From a virus (taxonomy: Duplodnaviria > Heunggongvirae > Uroviricota > Caudoviricetes), in the IMG/VR virus record IMGVR_UViG_3300042154_003418, positions 1 through 40,217 of that record: DNA of 40,217 nt. One strand, given 5' to 3'. A program made the position numbers and the translations under genes. Shown here piece after piece: positions 9,116-14,700 of this stretch. The notes under the pieces are model-generated. The model was given only the letters and a program-made list of their open reading frames with translations. It had not been told where the DNA came from and ran no database searches. Within the stretch, counting starts at the first letter, position 1; each line of letters begins with the position of its first letter.

Positions 9116-9428
9116 ACCCACACACCAAATCGCCTACAACTACTGCATGGCCAACATCCAGCAAAGTGCTGCGGTTGACCAAGTTAACACAGCACTCCGC
9201 AGTTTAGGGTCGGACAACTACCTGTTTAGCATGTGCGAGCCAATAGAGAGTGCGTATACCAAACTTGTTGAAGAATTACTAGGGCCAGAACTCTGGGACT
9301 GGCTGACCTGGTGGATGTATGAAACTGACTGTGGCCAACGCCAAATGCAGTTTTACATTGATGGTACAGAATACGATCCCACACAAATGACACTTTACCG
9401 CTTCTTGGAGATTGTTGATGCTGAGTAA
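9105..9428 (+). CDS. Hypothetical protein
   Basis: Coupled ORF; WLTWWMYETD motif. Confidence 0.6.
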   Translation: MAIKPTHQIAYNYCMANIQQSAAVDQVNTALRSLGSDNYLFSMCEPIESAYTKLVEELLGPELWDWLTWWMYETDCGQRQMQFYIDGTEYDPTQMTLYRFLEIVDAE

Positions 9429-9588
9429 ACTAAAACAAACACCAACTAAAGTCCTCTTGGCCATGCTGCTACTGCTGGTACTGTTTGTGGCAATACTGTT
9501 GTTTATTCCACCACTGGCAGGCAGCATTGTTGTGGCACTGGCCACTGGCTGGAGTGTTTTTACTGTACTCAACTACTGGATTGGATAA
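9418..9588 (+). CDS. Small two-TM membrane protein
   Basis: Hydrophobic 56-aa ORF overlapping the previous gene. Confidence 0.5.
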   Translation: MLSKLKQTPTKVLLAMLLLLVLFVAILLFIPPLAGSIVVALATGWSVFTVLNYWIG

Positions 9589-9592
9589 TACC

Positions 9593-9865
9593 ATGCGAAT
9601 CATCAAACACAGACTGCACCCTGGCATGAACAAGATTCAAGTTGAAGCTGACCACATATGCAAGCTCAGGTACATCAACGATCAAGACGGCCGTCTTATG
9701 GGCTGGTTTGAAGTTGCTGCTGATGTGGACTTGCACTTACAACCACATGAGTATGAAGTTTACCTGGCCATGACTGGTGAAACAGTTCCAGACGGCTACT
9801 GTTATGTGTGCAGCTATCAACAGCACCAAGCTGGTGGTTACTTTGTGGTACATGCTTTTGACTAA
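9593..9865 (+). CDS. Hypothetical protein (MRIIKHRL...)
   Basis: Internal ATG of track ORF 9485..9865; beta-rich small phage protein. Confidence 0.55.
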   Translation: MRIIKHRLHPGMNKIQVEADHICKLRYINDQDGRLMGWFEVAADVDLHLQPHEYEVYLAMTGETVPDGYCYVCSYQQHQAGGYFVVHAFD

Positions 9866-9959
9866 AGTCTAGCCGATTTGTTGCTACCTGCAATGTAACA
9901 AAACTCCAACAGACCAAGTTGGCTGAAAACCACATCAGCCGCAACCCTAAAAATCACCC

Positions 9960-9988
9960 TAGACAAACACCACCATAAAGGTTATAAT
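9960..9988 (+). promoter_or_regulatory. Sigma70-like promoter with a near-leaderless downstream gene
   Basis: TAGACA-N17-TATAAT; ATG only 6 nt after the -10 box. Confidence 0.65.
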
Positions 9989-9994
9989 ATTTAC

Positions 9995-10252
9995 ATGCAA
10001 AACAAAACTCAATACTTGATCTGCAAGTTGCAGGAGGAAGCAGCTGAGGTAATTCAAGCGGTTTCAAAAATCAACCGCTTTGGCGAACAAAGCCACCATC
10101 CTGATCGCACAACCACTAACAAACAAGAACTCGTCCAAGAACTAGAAGATTTCCTTGCAATTCTCGCAGTCTTAGAACAATCACAATGGCTAGACCTGAC
10201 CCCAAGTCGCAGTAATATTGCCAATAAAGCCCAAGCGCTTATTCAAGGTTAA
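9995..10252 (+). CDS. MazG-like nucleotide pyrophosphohydrolase
   Basis: KLQEEAAEVIQAVSK...ELEDFLA (ExxE...ExxD). Confidence 0.7.
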   Translation: MQNKTQYLICKLQEEAAEVIQAVSKINRFGEQSHHPDRTTTNKQELVQELEDFLAILAVLEQSQWLDLTPSRSNIANKAQALIQG

Positions 10253-10308
10253 ACCAGAGCCTGGCTACACAAAAAATCATAAACTATCTCCTAGCTAAAA
10301 TTTACACC

Positions 10309-10337
10309 TTGTTTTTTCGAAAAAAGTGTGCTATAAT
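10309..10337 (+). promoter_or_regulatory. Sigma70-like promoter upstream of D2-like gene
   Basis: TTGTTT-N17-TATAAT. Confidence 0.55.
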
Positions 10338-10635
10338 ATTAGTAATTGAAGAAACAGAGTACTAGGGCAGGAGTTAGTAACAGTAACACCGAGGAAGTTG
10401 GAAAGTCTATAGATCTTTCCAATCTTCCACGGTTATGTAAACTGTGTAAACTAACTCCGCTGCCCTACAAACTGCCAAAATGGCCACAAGTATTTTTAAC
10501 TTTTATTAACCCATTATTGTGGTTGGAGTGGGTGCGATAACAAAAGCAATCGCCCCACCTCGACCGCTTTCATACTCTAGAACTAATCTTCTAGACCCAC
10601 AACTGATCCACTTTAGGGTCAATTCACGTTAGATT

Positions 10636-11649
10636 ATGAACGATATTAAACTACTAGACTTTCCAGGCTTAGCCAGAGACTTTCAACAAACCTACACTCA
10701 ACTACGAGACGAACGATTACGGCTAGCCCAGGCTGTTGCAGAACGCCGCTATCGACAACAGTATAACCAATTGGTCCAGCAATTTTCAGGTTACGATTCG
10801 GAAGCAGGTAGTGACGGCATTGAAGAATCGGTTCGAGAATCACTGGGCGAGTTCGACCCACAAGCGGTTCAACTGCCAGAATCGGTATTACGTGAGTGTA
10901 AACACACGGCTAAGAGTAGTGTGGTTGAAGCTTGGAGTCTTAAAAACTCCCTTCCACAAAAGCTAACTTGGCTGCCGCATCAGCTGTTAGCATACTTTGG
11001 CACTTGGCAGGCTGTTCGTGACGACACAGGCAAGTATAGTGCCACACTAACCTGGGATGCCAACACCAGGGCTCGCGGCGACTACTACGCCTTAGGGTCG
11101 GCATTGCTGGCTACCTCCACTCGCACAAATTTTTTCAAGGATGCGCCTAAGGGTAATCAGCAGTACAAAAGTGTAATCAACCCACTTGTACCAATTATCT
11201 TAGCAGGATTTAAAAAGTATCAAGGCATCAACTATTCAGATTGGAATCCAGTTGGTTTGGAAACTTTGCTAGACCCTGAATTGGCCAAGCTTGTAGGTGT
11301 TTCGGTGCCGGAACTTTCACACAGCGAATTAATTGCGCTACGCAACACTGCCCTTACAGACAAAGAAGGTGCACGAGCAGGTATCCCCAATAATCCAGCT
11401 ACTTGCACCAAGCTCAATCACCTTGGTAATACGGCCATAGGTCACCTACCAAAACTTGCCAAATACATGGTACTACAAACCTGGGCAGCACATCCCAGCA
11501 ATCGTAATGAGTATATGATCTTAGACCCTAACAATTGGGATCACATTCCAGAGCCCCTGATCGGCAAAGATATTTTCTTGCCCAAACCACTTCAAGCCAC
11601 ACAACCCAGAATGGTTACCAGCTATTCGGAACTACCATGGGATGCTTGA
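10636..11649 (+). CDS. D2: T5 D2-like protein
   Basis: NPLVPIILAGFKKYQGINYSDW and LPKLAKYMVLQTW...RNEYMI...PEPL...PW recall T5 D2; precedes a D3-like gene as in T5. Confidence 0.7.
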   Translation: MNDIKLLDFPGLARDFQQTYTQLRDERLRLAQAVAERRYRQQYNQLVQQFSGYDSEAGSDGIEESVRESLGEFDPQAVQLPESVLRECKHTAKSSVVEAWSLKNSLPQKLTWLPHQLLAYFGTWQAVRDDTGKYSATLTWDANTRARGDYYALGSALLATSTRTNFFKDAPKGNQQYKSVINPLVPIILAGFKKYQGINYSDWNPVGLETLLDPELAKLVGVSVPELSHSELIALRNTALTDKEGARAGIPNNPATCTKLNHLGNTAIGHLPKLAKYMVLQTWAAHPSNRNEYMILDPNNWDHIPEPLIGKDIFLPKPLQATQPRMVTSYSELPWDA

Positions 11650-11962
11650 AATGAAATACACCAAAGAAATTTGTGACCACATGGTTCAAGCCTATAATTC
11701 AGGGGTTACGGTGCCACAGCTAGCACAGGAGCTGGACGTGCCCGAACGCAGCATAATTGCCAAGCTATCGAGCCTGGGAGTCTACCAGAAAAAGAGCTAC
11801 TTAAACAAGCGTGGTGAAACGCCGGTGAAAAAGTCAGAGCACATCGAACGCATTGCCATACTCTTGAACACCAACCTAGAATTGCTAGAATCATTAGAAA
11901 AAGTCAACAAAACTGTGCTGGTCATGATCGAACGCGCGCTCACCGACCCTAAACTGCCATAA
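11642..11962 (+). CDS. D3: T5 D3/A2-family HTH DNA-binding protein
   Basis: YT.E...MV..Y..G.TV..LA..L....RSIIAKLS..GVY...KK....I...L....ESLEK.NK; paralog of three other ORFs in the window. Confidence 0.7.
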   Translation: MLEMKYTKEICDHMVQAYNSGVTVPQLAQELDVPERSIIAKLSSLGVYQKKSYLNKRGETPVKKSEHIERIAILLNTNLELLESLEKVNKTVLVMIERALTDPKLP

Positions 11963-11998
11963 TTGCACACAATCCGACTTAATTGACGCTACAAACGC

Positions 11999-12035
11999 AA
12001 AAGCCCCATTATCATGTGATATTGGGGCTTTTTTG
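11999..12035 (+). terminator. Rho-independent terminator after D2-D3
   Basis: AAAAGCCCCA...TGGGGCTTTT followed by a T run. Confidence 0.85.
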
Positions 12036-12050
12036 TTTGTGTAATTCTCA

Positions 12051-12172
12051 TGTTCGAATTTGTCCCAAATTCGAACACGTTAGCTCTAAGTGTACGTTAC
12101 TGCTGCACTTGTTGCAGCTTAGGGTCATACAACACCTAAAGAATCTTTAGCACTTGTTGCAGCTTAGGGTCA
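12051..12172. repeat. 12-bp-arm inverted repeat plus a 23-bp direct repeat
   Basis: TGTTCGAATTTG-tcc-CAAATTCGAACA (12051-12077); GCACTTGTTGCAGCTTAGGGTCA at 12105 and 12150. Confidence 0.9.
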
Positions 12173-12192
12173 GTACTCACAAGAATCCACAC

Positions 12193-12230
12193 TTGACAAC
12201 AAAGGTTCTGCACTGGTATAATTTGGCGCA
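12193..12230 (+). promoter_or_regulatory. Promoter cassette copy (TTGACA-N18-TATAAT-TTGGCGCA)
   Basis: Direct sequence match; faces the terminator at 12283. Confidence 0.7.
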
Positions 12231-12282
12231 GACCGCAACAGACTAGGTGTAAAAATGTCGAGCTGACCAAAACACCCAAAAC

Positions 12283-12317
12283 AAAAGCCCCAAGAGTAGC
12301 TAACTCTTGGGGCTTTT
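12283..12317. terminator. Bidirectional intrinsic terminator
   Basis: 15-bp stem AAAAGCCCCAAGAGT/ACTCTTGGGGCTTTT with T tracts in both directions. Confidence 0.85.
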
Positions 12318-12485
12318 GAACAATCACGAGTGCACTCGCTGTTAGTTTTTAGTCTCACACGACGACTTACTGGGGGTACCACCCACGCTAACTGCATCGA
12401 CCCTAAACTGGAGCACGGTCGCAGGGCATTAGGTTATTGCCTGTGTAGCTCTAGCAGGGGAGAAAGTATTGGTTCGGCTCTTCAG

Positions 12486-12777
12486 CCCACCACACGGTTT
12501 ACGACACTGGGCTTTGTCGACTGCTATAGATTAACGACTGTTGCAGTTCGGGGTCGGGTGCTACGGTTCCAGCGCATGCACCACTTTTAGCGACTCGGGG
12601 TCGGGTGCTCCAGTCGAAGCTTTTGCACCACTTTTAACGACTTAGGGTCGAGTGCTCAGTTTGCGATAAGCACCACTCAGGGGCCATTTAACGACAATCC
12701 GTGTCGGGCCACATTAACGAGGGCCAAGCTCGGGTACGTAAGTGCACCAGGCTGCCAAGACCATTTTACGTCGGTAC
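12486..12777 (-). repeat. Array of repeated hairpin units (CGAC-loop-GTCG-YTAAA alternating with GGTGC-N13-15-GCACC)
   Basis: 32-nt repeats at 12578 and 12625 (28/32 identical, period 47) plus degenerate flanking units, one with a compensatory CGAG/CTCG stem. Confidence 0.75.
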
Positions 12778-12918
12778 CAGATAAGACGGCAGTTTATATA
12801 GTAACTGCTCACTAGGCTTACTCATTTCCAGCTAATCACTTTCAGTGGTGGGTCCATCCGGTTTTCGCTTTCGCTACTAGGCTTCAAGAGTCAGTCACAT
12901 CCCGGTTTCGCTGGGTTT

Positions 12919-13025
12919 TCATCCTGACCCTAAGGTACGGCAAGCGGTGATGTGGGAAAATCACGCACACTTGCTGTGAGGCCTTAAGGTTTCGCACAAC
13001 TTGCATGTGCTCATCAGAGGGTTGG
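12919..13025 (-). ncRNA. Hammerhead ribozyme, type I
   Basis: CUGAUGA-GCACA[UGCAAGU]UGUGC-GAAA core; 9-bp stem III (ACCUUAAGG/CCUUAGGGU); GUC cleavage triplet; short stem I (CCU/AGG). Confidence 0.8.
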
Positions 13026-13236
13026 TATCGCATACGGGTAACGATCCCGTCTAGGTACCTTGAAAGGGTACTGACCTCACCTGAAGTCGAATGCGATATG
13101 TTAAATTAGCCACGCAGGTATTTTACTACTTACCATACGGAACATCGTCCAGATATTACGGGCTAAAAAGGTTGGGCTGCGACTAGAGTTTGTTCGGTCG
13201 CAATCAAGTTGTTATCCCAGCATCGAGTGCTGAGCC

Positions 13237-13594
13237 TCATAACACCCATAAGTTAATCGGCCAACGTAATGGTCCACACTCAAATCGTAGATATAGGATG
13301 CGTAAGCTAAGTTTTCTGGCTTAAAGGTTGCTGCCTTTCCATACTTCGCCGCTTACTCCAACAGAGCCTATCGCCGTAACAATTATAGTTGCGCTACTAG
13401 ATTACTGCCACCAGCAAGTAGCTGGCCGATTAACTTATGGATTCATAACACCCATAATAAAGTACCCAGCAAATTCTTGCAGAGTTGCAGCATTCTACCA
13501 CTTTCGCCGTCTCGGCCGAGACCTACCGGTGGGGTTAATCTGCATACATCTAACAAGCAAACCAGGCTAGCACTGTCTGGGTACTTTATTATGG
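13237..13594 (-). repeat. Two tandem domains, each closed by a perfect 18-bp stem and followed by an identical 15-nt handle
   Basis: 13246-13263 pairs with 13423-13440; 13452-13469 pairs with 13577-13594; TCATAACACCCATAA at 13237 and 13443. Confidence 0.9.
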
Positions 13595-13682
13595 ACACTA
13601 AGGGCTGTGGCTCGGTTCCCGAAGGTATTCCCCACAATTAAGACGCTGCTTGACGCGACCGCTGTCACCCAATCTATACTAT

Positions 13683-13991
13683 ATTATAACATACAACAGT
13701 TAACATAATCAAGATAATATTTAGTAGCCTTGTTAACTGCTGTTGTCTTATCGCTTTCTAAGTATATATTATATCAAACTCAATTAACAAAATCAACAAA
13801 AGAATTCCAATCGTTTCCTCAAGACTAGCTTCGCAGGTGTGTCGACGTACAGTGACTGGTTAGTGATTGCGGCTGCTGAGGCAGAACTGGCACCGGTTGA
13901 TTAATCACACGGTATTCATTAAGCCATTCCCGACTGGGTTCTTTGTTAATTTCTAAGTATATATTATATCGCGAAATGGGTCACAGATCAA
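13683..13991 (-). promoter_or_regulatory. Three tandem minus-strand promoters upstream of the ncRNA
   Basis: TTGATT-N18-TGnTATAAT (13712-13683), TTGATT-N17-TATAAT (13796-13768), TTGATC-N17-TATAAT (13991-13963); the latter two share the leader ATATACTTAGAAA. Confidence 0.75.
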
Positions 13992-14014
13992 GTGTAGATT
14001 TTGTGACCCTAAAC

Positions 14015-14323
14015 TTAAGCAAGTTCTGCAACCAGACGCTCAAGCACTTCGTGGTTGGCCTTTTCCAGGCTTTCAAACACTTCTGGAGCAACGCCGCAGG
14101 CAAGTGCCAGCTTGTCCACCAGTTCGGCTTTACGCACACGGTGTTGGCCGGTGGCCTTGGTTTTGGCCACGTACACGCCTTCGCGGCTGAGTTTGGCCAC
14201 TACACTGCGTACGGTTTTGCCCAGGGTCTCGGCCAGTTGTTCCACGGTCTTGCCCGACTGGTAGCCTGTGACGAGTTCCACGGTTTGCTCGGGAGTGTAG
14301 TTTTGAGGGGTTGCTTTAGTCAT
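14015..14323 (-). CDS. A2: T5 A2/D3-family DNA-binding protein, paralog
   Basis: NYTPEQT...GKTVRSVVAKLSREGVY...ESLEKAN; RBS AAAGGA; the 195-aa track start is an upstream extension. Confidence 0.8.
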   Translation of the reverse strand: MTKATPQNYTPEQTVELVTGYQSGKTVEQLAETLGKTVRSVVAKLSREGVYVAKTKATGQHRVRKAELVDKLALACGVAPEVFESLEKANHEVLERLVAELA

Positions 14324-14363
14324 CATATGTCCTTTGGTTGGTTTCTGCGCTGTTGAAGATTCT

Positions 14364-14392
14364 ATTATACGTGAATCAGAAGGGAACATCAA
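14364..14392 (-). promoter_or_regulatory. Promoter of the A2-like paralog
   Basis: TTGATG-N17-TATAAT-AGAATCTTCAACA; the same leader recurs at 15852-15870. Confidence 0.75.
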
Positions 14393-14507
14393 GATCAAAA
14401 TTTTCGTCTTGAGTGGTAGTATCACAAAACATTTCCGATAGTTCCGCATCCACAAATTCATCGAATGCCGCATACTGATACGCTGTGAAAAATTCGTTTG
14501 TTGCCAT
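14376..14507 (-). CDS. 43-aa acidic peptide ending ...DENFDLDVPF (SSB C-terminal-tip-like)
   Basis: Own promoter (TTGCAG-N17-TATAAT near 14536-14564) and AGGAGA RBS; 11 D/E and no K/R. Confidence 0.65.
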   Translation of the reverse strand: MATNEFFTAYQYAAFDEFVDAELSEMFCDTTTQDENFDLDVPF

Positions 14508-14579
14508 CTGCCGTTATCTCCTGTTGATGTAATAATTATACAAAACTTGGACACTTGCTGCAATATCAAAAATTTCGTC

Positions 14580-14700
14580 TTGACACTGTAAAGCTTTTGC
14601 ACTTATAATTTGGCGCAGCAAACCCTCAAGTTTTTGCACTTGACCGCGCACTGGCGCAAGGCCCAAGGTTTTGCACTTGACAAGGTTTCGCACTGGCGCA
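14580..14700 (+). promoter_or_regulatory. Promoter cassette copy plus two degenerate TTTTGCACTT...TGGCGCA repeats
   Basis: TTGACA-N18-TATAAT-TTGGCGCA at 14580-14617; repeats at about 14632-14658 and 14669-14700. Confidence 0.7.

Follow-up and report, generated by a model that had tools for sequence, protein, structure and literature searches.

A gene-free region in the genome of a T5-like phage

The IMG/VR record IMGVR_UViG_3300042154_003418 is a phage genome of 104,217 base pairs (bp), whose first 40 kb (positions 1 to 40,217) are hereafter called the window. Our attention was drawn to the region bounded by the end of a plus-strand gene (11962) and the end of a minus-strand gene (14015). Judged from the sequence, some 1.7 kb of it encode, on the minus strand, a structured non-coding RNA that is conserved and very probably contains a hammerhead ribozyme. 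A first-pass annotation of the same DNA had noted that about 2 kb lack a credible open reading frame (ORF), and we indeed found no ORF above 86 amino acids (aa) in 11962-14015; this gap of 2053 nucleotides (nt) is the largest in the genome without an ORF of at least 100 aa. When peptides of at least 30 aa were compared on both strands, none was common to more than 10 of 29 distinct homologous regions, which means that no ORF is conserved. Fold-energy z-scores, calculated against 20 dinucleotide shuffles, were -3.4 for the 5' part of the RNA and -2.5 for its 3' part. Unless the plus strand is named, all the features described below lie on the minus strand.

The terminase of this phage is about 49% identical to terminases of Vibrio Demerecviridae (phages of 113-117 kb), and we therefore consider it as a distant T5-like phage. 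Terminal repeats of the T5 type are about 10 kb long; the direct terminal repeat of the record measures 127 bp (1-127 / 104091-104217) and fits the k-mer overlap of a circularly assembled contig, not a repeat of that type. Since it marks a circular assembly, the record gives no true genome ends, and the earlier proposal that the RNA is delivered with the pre-early DNA has lost its basis.

Using a neighbouring gene of 195 aa, we recovered 52 syntenic viral loci. By blastn, the gene-free region is conserved block by block across these loci, and the strongest block lies at 13023-12909. We assign the carriers of the locus to one uncultured T5-like (Demerecviridae-related) clade, with about 68 IMG/VR contigs. 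When 50,697 deposited phage records were searched by megablast and blastn with the region of the window and with its version in the relative L047, the only matches were two to tRNA-Glu (glutamate transfer RNA). The ribozyme model R1, presented below, found nothing in phage T5 or in Vibrio phage 234P1, and a search of bacterial genomes with the pattern of the 5' module returned a single match, on a 2.9-kb contig of a metagenome bin that gave no clue to the host.

A very probable hammerhead ribozyme within the RNA

The predicted ribozyme is a type I hammerhead at 12923-13021. It is composed of stem I (CCU/AGG), a CUGAUGA core, a stem II of 5 bp with a UGCAAGU loop, GAAA, a stem III of 9 bp with a paired extension, and the triplet GUC, and cleavage is predicted between GUC and A (positions 12926 and 12925). 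Among 34 distinct sequences, the core positions C3 U4 G5 A6 N7 G8 A9 and G12 A13 A14 are invariant in all, N7 being U or C and H17 being C (30 sequences) or A (4 sequences). The closing pair A15.1-U16.1 is present in 34 of 34 and G10.1-C11.1 in 32 of 34. Stems II and III are capped and stem I is open. Stem I occurs as CCU/AGG, CCA/UGG or CCUU/AAGG, and the conserved loop II (UGNAANU) has, by eye, no covarying partner in the flanks of the hammerhead alignment.

Stems I, II and III were all recovered by RNAalifold unaided. In the resulting structure 93% of the cells are paired, 80 cells are changed on both sides and 9 pairs show compensatory change. The covariation score is 0.397, compared with 0.151 ± 0.012 in shuffles, none of which (0/500) reached this value; as a control, sliding the partners by 1-3 columns lowered the score to 0.10 or less. 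The G-U pairs of stem III (UG in 12 and GU in 11 of the 34 sequences) would be C-A mismatches on the opposite strand, which places the hammerhead on the minus strand. With 113.5 bits, this position is the sole hit of model R1 in the genome. Of 56 loci, 49 have the ribozyme according to this model, as do 26 of the 32 additional loci to which the independent 5'-module pattern led; in total, about 68 contigs besides the window hold the hammerhead. From these data we consider the hammerhead to be very probably real. The first-pass annotation had announced that a hammerhead would yield a 5' RNA of about 750 nt and a 3' RNA of about 650 nt, and the predicted cut agrees with this, as it would give 751 and about 646 nt from a start near 13676.

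Hammerheads of type I have been described in bacteria and prophages, where they flank genes in prophage transcripts (Perreault et al. 2011, PMC3088659). The hammerhead studied here resembles them in its full consensus core, its three covarying stems, its GUC/GUA triplet, its phage setting and the presumed cutting of a long phage transcript. It differs from them by its position inside a non-coding RNA instead of between genes, by an extension of about 45 paired nt on stem III, by a stem I of 3-5 pairs without recognisable loop-loop contact, by the GACCCUAA element found inside stem II of two relatives, and by the fact that Rfam 15 misses it.

Some relatives carry variants of the ribozyme. In L022 (6979-7162), L023 (7126-7258) and L101 (711-822), stem II bears a long insert containing a GACCCUAAACUG...UUUUAAAU element, and the L101 hammerhead has an A at core position 7. 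In a more distant subclade (L047, L050, L051 and L052; at about 9500-10700), the same hammerhead recurs with GUA as its triplet; in these four loci the 5' and 3' RNA domains differ, an ORF follows directly and 4-10 tRNA genes lie a few kb upstream.

Two additional elements of the ribozyme were considered and rejected. A loop II pseudoknot, in which AAGUU would pair with an upstream AACUU present in some loci, is neither conserved nor covarying elsewhere, and in the window it is displaced by the tRNA. The distal GUUUAGGGUC(AGG) at 12398-12408 was envisaged as a second hammerhead substrate, from which a circularisable RNA would be excised. In the window the bases after GUC (GAU) are unable to form stem I; in L025 stem I is CCA/UGG, yet the distal site reads AGC; and in relatives having AGG it pairs locally with a downstream CCUG.

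Putative promoters and terminator

The minus-strand extended -10 promoter proposed at 13683-13712, with two more upstream, and the 15-bp terminator proposed at 12283-12317 were both recovered. We found three sigma-70 promoters: P1 (13963-13991; TTGATC, 17-nt spacer, TATAAT), with a TTTAGGGTCA motif ahead of it at 14004-14013; P2 (13768-13796; TTGATT, 17-nt spacer, TG-TATAAT), which matches P1 exactly over 21 nt covering the -10 box and start region; and P3 (13683-13712; TTGATT, 18-nt spacer, TG-TATAAT), from which the main RNA would start at about 13676. The relatives have a promoter at the position equivalent to P3, ahead of GGGUGACAGCGG. In the region as a whole there are 11 promoter-like sites, against 2.9 ± 2.0 in shuffles. 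The intrinsic terminator (12278-12318) consists of a stem of 16 bp at 12318-12282 and a U-tract; it doubles as a weaker terminator for the plus strand and is kept across loci as TTCAAAAGCCCC...GGGGCTTTTGTTTTG.

A leader RNA of about 170 nt (13788-13958), starting with the conserved CAGUCGGGAA.GGCUUAAUGAAUACC, is predicted downstream of P1. It is kept in most loci, and by eye a closing stem and a U-run end it just ahead of the next promoter; it is probably a separate small RNA or an attenuator. This leader has a CUUAAU motif in common with modules a and d of the main RNA.

Junctions and cargo domains of the 5' part

The 5' part of the main RNA opens with module a (13602-13670), a three-way junction with the organisation GGGUGACAGCGG-variable hairpin-CGUCUUAAUUGUGG-loop-GAGCCACAGCCC. 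In 24 sequences the junction bases and the two outer helices are invariant and the variable hairpin covaries at 5 pairs; a pattern search located the motif in 61 viral stretches. The same architecture occurs a second time in modules c and d (13171-13247), arranged as GGUGUUAUGAG-hairpin-AUAACAACUUGAU-hairpin (GCGAC..GUCGC)-AGCCC. These comprise 19 pairs, 10 with compensatory changes among 16 sequences, in which the TGCGAC/GTCGCA hairpin contributes changes at 6 of its 7 pairs.

Between the two junctions lie two long-stemmed domains that we call cargo domains, both followed by GUGUUAUGA. Cargo domain 1 (13452-13594) has 33 predicted pairs, 15 of them with compensatory changes in 8 sequences. 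Its closing repeat (13452-13480 / 13566-13594) forms a 19-bp helix in the relatives, with all but 3 of 152 cells paired and compensatory changes at 9 positions, and its inner hairpin (13507-13523) has a covarying stem and an invariant, self-complementary GGCC loop. Cargo domain 2 (13246-13440), for which no homologue was found, is closed by a perfect 18-bp helix formed by the inverted repeat 13246-13263 / 13423-13440.

The first-pass annotation had listed two 18-bp closures, the TGCGAC/GTCGCA stem, a palindrome and a C(UUCG)G loop. Both repeats are present, the second being the covarying 19-bp helix in the relatives; the hairpin, the loop and the palindrome, which is centred on GGCC, are present as well. 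The compensatory changes across relatives lead us to regard the stems that the relatives share as real RNA helices.

A predicted tRNA-Glu beside the ribozyme

The pairing of TATCGCAT with ATGCGATA (13026/13091), which had been thought to close a multiway junction, does exist; the multiway junction was a misreading, since ARAGORN calls a tRNA-Glu there (13097-13023), with anticodon UUC, an encoded CCA and a non-canonical core, and TATCGCAT/ATGCGATA is its acceptor stem. The cloverleaf has an acceptor stem of 7 bp, UUC in a 7-nt loop and a CCA end, and it also appears in the minimum-energy fold. By direct reading, U13-G22, A46 and a variable loop of 4 nt are present. The core shows U14, C15-G48 and a T-loop AUCGUUA (A54/U58) in place of the usual A14, G15-C48 and T54/A58. 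The tRNA of the relative L033 has the same U14, C15-G48, A54/U58 type, and compensatory changes between the two copies keep the cloverleaf. By direct reading, the core of these two tRNAs looks like a coordinated change of tertiary pairs. At the same site, L008 carries a canonical tRNA-Glu (50.5 bits with the Rfam tRNA model), and the tRNA of the window is 78% identical to the annotated tRNA-Glu of Rhodobacter phage RcXuper.

According to ARAGORN, a tRNA adjoins the hammerhead in 10 loci besides the window and is always tRNA-Glu(UUC), with at least three different sequence types at this site. It stands immediately 5' of the ribozyme in 8 of the 10 loci; in the other two, L005 (7082-7181) and L021, an extra element of about 100 nt, ending in ACCACCA, lies in between. 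At the same place L009, L011 and L015 have a hairpin followed by GCCCACCA, which recalls a minihelix ending in CCA.

T5-like phages carry tRNA clusters, and L047 and L050-L052 do have tRNA genes near the locus. One could thus suppose that the region is a decayed tRNA cluster, of which one tRNA is still present, or else a set of unannotated small protein genes. ARAGORN finds a single tRNA only, the other modules are conserved, covarying and not cloverleaves, and no ORF is conserved; we therefore hold this explanation to be very improbable.

Ribozymes of the hepatitis delta virus (HDV)-like kind cut at their own 5' edge. PMC10879173 places such ribozymes, termed theta, beside phage tRNAs and ties them to tRNA maturation. 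Like them, the ribozyme of our locus is directly 3' of a phage tRNA; unlike them, it is a predicted hammerhead that would cut 97 nt beyond the CCA, and it persists in relatives without the tRNA.

Tandem hairpins and pseudoknots of the 3' RNA

Small hairpins and pseudoknots, with GACCCUAA as their building block, make up the predicted 3' RNA of about 646 nt. The hammerhead is followed by a variable hairpin (12828-12915; CCCAG...CUGG), whose closing stem, by eye, changes in step among relatives and whose insert in the window holds a CCUAGUAGC-GAAA hairpin-GAAAAC motif. Module G (12755-12828) comes next and reads GAAAUGAGUAAG-CCUAG-hairpin-CUAUAU...CCGUC, loop UUAUCUGGUACC, GACGUAAAAUGGUCUUGG; it is 89% identical in L009 and L015, its two hairpins show compensatory changes, and all 29 distinct regions have its AGUA-CUAG anchor.

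At 12548-12695 there are three tandem units of 47-54 nt, with the consensus GUCGYUAAAAGU-GGUGC-(14-16 variable nt)-GCACC-CGACCCYRA, a period of 47 nt and 81% identity; related units with periods of 37-47 nt occur in other loci. They are followed by a unit (12516-12556) that, by direct reading, forms an H-type pseudoknot, with a CGAC/GUCG stem and a loop ACUGC that pairs with a downstream GCAGU. In 9 relatives the equivalent unit is 100% paired; its loop and its downstream segment each vary at two positions only, and these covary with one another. Module H (12465-12516; CAAAGCCCA...UGGUGGGCU-GAAG-AGCCGAACCAAUACU) contains a covarying hairpin with a four-base loop, found as GGCU/AGCC, GGGU/ACCC, GAGU/ACUC and GGCA/UGCC, and is 84% identical in L006 and L021. 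The RNA closes with a 3' module (12345-12408), present in 26 of 29 distinct regions, which opens with the reverse motif copy GUUUAGGGUC and ends with ACUAAAAAC. A further conserved module, CACGGAUAUCC-hairpin-GGACUGAAACGUGCA, which looks like a hairpin with a GA-rich internal loop, is found in 17 of 29 distinct relatives and not in the window.

Repeats of the ToxI type fall in the same size range of 37-47 nt. The 3' RNA could accordingly be imagined as a decoy array that mimics ToxI-like type III antitoxin repeats or soaks up an RNA-cutting defence protein, the hammerhead serving only to release the array. The tandem units of 37-47 nt each have an A-rich UAAAA(A)U tract, at least one type of unit forms an H-type pseudoknot with covariation, close relatives have between 1 and 4 units, and the promoters are strong ones that host RNA polymerase should read. 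A phage pseudo-ToxI (PMC3475682) provides a precedent, and the units of the window resemble it in being phage-encoded, tandem, pseudoknot-forming, about 36-47 nt long and equipped with A-rich tracts; they differ from it by being non-identical and by having neither a known toxin nor an Rfam match. Indeed, antitoxin repeats are nearly identical to one another and lie next to a toxin gene of the ToxN/AbiQ type. The units of the window reach 81% identity at best, none of the Rfam antitoxin families gives a match at E<=10, no endoribonuclease family is found among the flanking genes tested, and no toxin partner or host is known. In addition, toxin mimicry does not explain an 8-mer that is scattered through coding DNA. 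We consequently judge this alternative to be improbable.

A variable chain of modules

RNA lengths range from 591 to 1392 nt among the loci, the copy of the window being the longest. The nearest relatives, L003 and L004 (about 80-89% identical), are devoid of both the tRNA and the domain at 13443-13251 (cargo domain 2), and we therefore consider both as insertions or deletions at fixed sites. Helices covary among relatives in at least six modules. Instead of the single ornate RNA of about 1.4 kb that had been proposed, the locus is thus a chain of conserved modules with cargo at fixed sites, with homologues of 0.59-1.39 kb.

GOLLD is known to be linked with tRNAs, and size, phage origin, a tRNA inside or beside the RNA and ornate multi-domain folding all recall GOLLD and ROOL, although these are resemblances only. 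We ran cmscan with Rfam 15 (4227 families) on the whole window at the gathering score, and on 11800-14200 at E<=10 with permissive filters. No family reached the gathering score in the whole window, and neither GOLLD, ROOL, hammerhead nor tRNA was detected at E<=10 in 11800-14200. The opinion that the RNA is not recognisable as GOLLD or ROOL is thereby borne out; its size does resemble theirs, as had been remarked, and no model match extends this resemblance to a relation. GOLLD and ROOL are large ornate RNAs of phages and prophages (PMC5737381; bioRxiv 10.1101/2024.12.08.627333). The present RNAs are like them in being phage-borne, multi-domain, several hundred nt long and located beside or around tRNAs, and unlike them in lacking any match of sequence or structure and in forming a variable module chain with an internal ribozyme. 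Their length varies more than two-fold via gain and loss of modules, and a literature search turned up no hammerhead for GOLLD or ROOL. That the RNA is a divergent member of either family seems extremely improbable to us.

The GACCCTAA word and the flanking cassettes

The genome of 104 kb contains 25 copies of the word GACCCTAA, which is often extended to GACCCTAAACTGC, against about 3 expected by our own estimate; 13 of the 25 are within 9211-14013. Between 12.9 and 54 kb the word is on the plus strand, and between 71 and 101 kb on the minus strand, co-oriented with two long gene arms. Several copies are inside coding regions. In the RNA, the reverse complement of GACCCTAA provides the 3' strand of stem III and the cleavage triplet of the hammerhead. 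Since the word is part of covarying hairpins and pseudoknots, it has a role in the RNA here, whatever its role in the DNA.

On each flank of the locus, GACCCTAA also precedes a promoter cassette, the two cassettes being mirror images. On the left, a consensus promoter on the plus strand (12193-12222; TTGACA, 18-nt spacer, TG-TATAAT; 12/12 consensus matches) is aimed into the terminator and kept in nearly all loci, with copies of TTAGGGTCA upstream at 12119 and 12164; the P1 cassette recurs as an inverted copy at 12164-12222. This left promoter would yield a short antisense RNA. Inward-facing inverted cassettes (TTAGGGTCA, spacer, AATCYACACTTGAY promoter) bracket the locus at 12101-12222 on the plus strand and 13963-14030 on the minus strand.

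The two flanking genes, 11642-11962 on the plus strand and 14015-14602 on the minus strand, match the same families, phrog_323 (transcriptional regulator, D5-like) and phrog_1725 (DNA binding protein), and their products are candidate readers of the GACCCTAA motif. Pfam and PHROG scans of ten neighbouring ORFs revealed no ligase, nuclease or RNA-modifying enzyme.

These observations invite an explanation at the level of DNA, in which the paralogous proteins encoded on either side would bind a cluster of GACCCTAA operators or iterons with promoter cassettes. Such a region might coincide with a replication origin, and the RNA would be a by-product. The excess and clustering of the word (13 copies within 9-14 kb), the flip of its orientation at the RNA locus, the inverted repeats of motif and promoter on the flanks and the families shared by both neighbouring genes would suit such a control region. 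It leaves unexplained that compensatory changes, including strand-specific G-U pairs, preserve the RNA helices of at least six modules and that the ribozyme core is invariant; moreover, the spacing of the units (37, 39, 44 and 47 bp) is out of phase with the DNA helix, and a 2',3'-cyclic phosphate end is unable to prime DNA synthesis. In our view a mainly DNA-level function is quite improbable.

Proposed processing and role of the RNA

The best overall explanation, to which we give a fair degree of credence, is that the locus is a self-processing non-coding 'RNA operon' of this T5-like clade. Host RNA polymerase would transcribe the minus strand from the stacked sigma-70 promoters to the terminator at 12318-12282. 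The transcript would be composed of separately folding modules, namely two related three-way junctions, the two long-stemmed cargo domains, tRNA-Glu(UUC), the hammerhead and the 3' RNA of about 646 nt. The hammerhead would then cut itself between GUC and A, so that the 3' RNA would begin with a 5'-hydroxyl and a 2',3'-cyclic phosphate would close the 5' part.

In one subclade (L109, L114 and L098), an internal consensus promoter lies between the tRNA and the hammerhead, and for this reason we assign the ribozyme to the 3' RNA, whose short leader it would trim. Since in these three loci it would do nothing else, its conserved job may be to give the 3' RNA a defined 5'-hydroxyl end. In the window, where the units are fused, the ribozyme would also separate the 3' RNA from the tRNA-bearing unit. 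Ribonuclease P (RNase P) and host 3' nucleases could subsequently free the tRNA, and products of about 580, 75, 97 and 646 nt would be expected. Transcription and actual cleavage are in our opinion quite likely, and release of the tRNA rather likely.

The previous view of a modular, self-processing system fits with the gain and loss of modules among relatives and with a predicted hammerhead that should self-process. As for the two RNA products foreseen, the cut into 751 and 646 nt is retained and the final number is not, four being likely if the tRNA is freed. A role as replication primer was rejected: processing would leave a cyclic phosphate end and a 3' RNA ended by the terminator, neither able to prime DNA synthesis. 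For the 2',3'-cyclic phosphate, this inability is established ribozyme chemistry.

Several points weigh against the self-processing operon. The Rfam 15 hammerhead models do not match, either at the gathering score or at E<=10, probably because stem III carries an insert of about 45 nt. Stem I is limited to 3-5 pairs, and we saw neither a tertiary contact nor a pseudoknot that consistently links it with loop II. The Rfam tRNA model does not match the tRNA of the window at E<=10, and this element may thus only look like a tRNA and not work as one. The predicted cut falls 97 nt past the CCA end, and the tRNA 3' end is thus not expected to be made by the ribozyme. The scattering of the 25 GACCCTAA copies in genome DNA means that part of the conservation could act at the DNA level. 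Finally, no link from the locus to a defence system was seen.

Concerning the role of the operon, three features would fit counter-defence or host takeover: strong promoters in a stack, cargo that turns over fast among close relatives, and a tRNA that is always tRNA-Glu. As a tentative possibility, the products would form an RNA set for such a purpose, in which the tRNA-Glu replaces a targeted host tRNA or acts as a decoy for it, and the repeats of the 3' RNA titrate a nuclease or another protein that binds RNA. The tRNAs of T5-like phages evade tRNA-cleaving defences (PMC11555353). Our case is similar to these in that a T5-like phage has a single specific tRNA and a predicted strong promoter; it differs in that a large non-coding RNA surrounds the tRNA, whose tertiary core is unusual, and no defence targeting tRNA-Glu is known here. 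A more elaborate version would be a self-processing counter-defence 'RNA island', whose ribozyme, together with host nucleases, releases exchangeable cargoes: a re-engineered tRNA-Glu resisting or decoying a tRNA-cutting defence, and GACCCUAA pseudoknot arrays titrating an RNA-binding nuclease or regulator. The GGCC loops might even let domains multimerise as ROOL and GOLLD do. The conjunction of all these elements strikes us as rather unlikely.

We propose that these RNAs constitute an undescribed modular phage RNA family with a tRNA-Glu cargo and a very probable hammerhead; a full-text literature search, whose coverage of the literature is incomplete, found no description of it. To our knowledge, phages have few large structured RNAs, and a function is not known for any of them. 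With about 68 natural variants, clear module boundaries, swapped cargo and a 5' end fixed by the ribozyme, this family is suited to covariation-guided modelling, cryo-electron microscopy and cleavage assays. It also indicates that real variants in phage genomes escape the curated models of hammerheads and tRNAs. A tRNA-Glu whose tertiary pairs have co-varied, in a fixed place beside the ribozyme, is a hint of a selective pressure specific to tRNA-Glu in the host.

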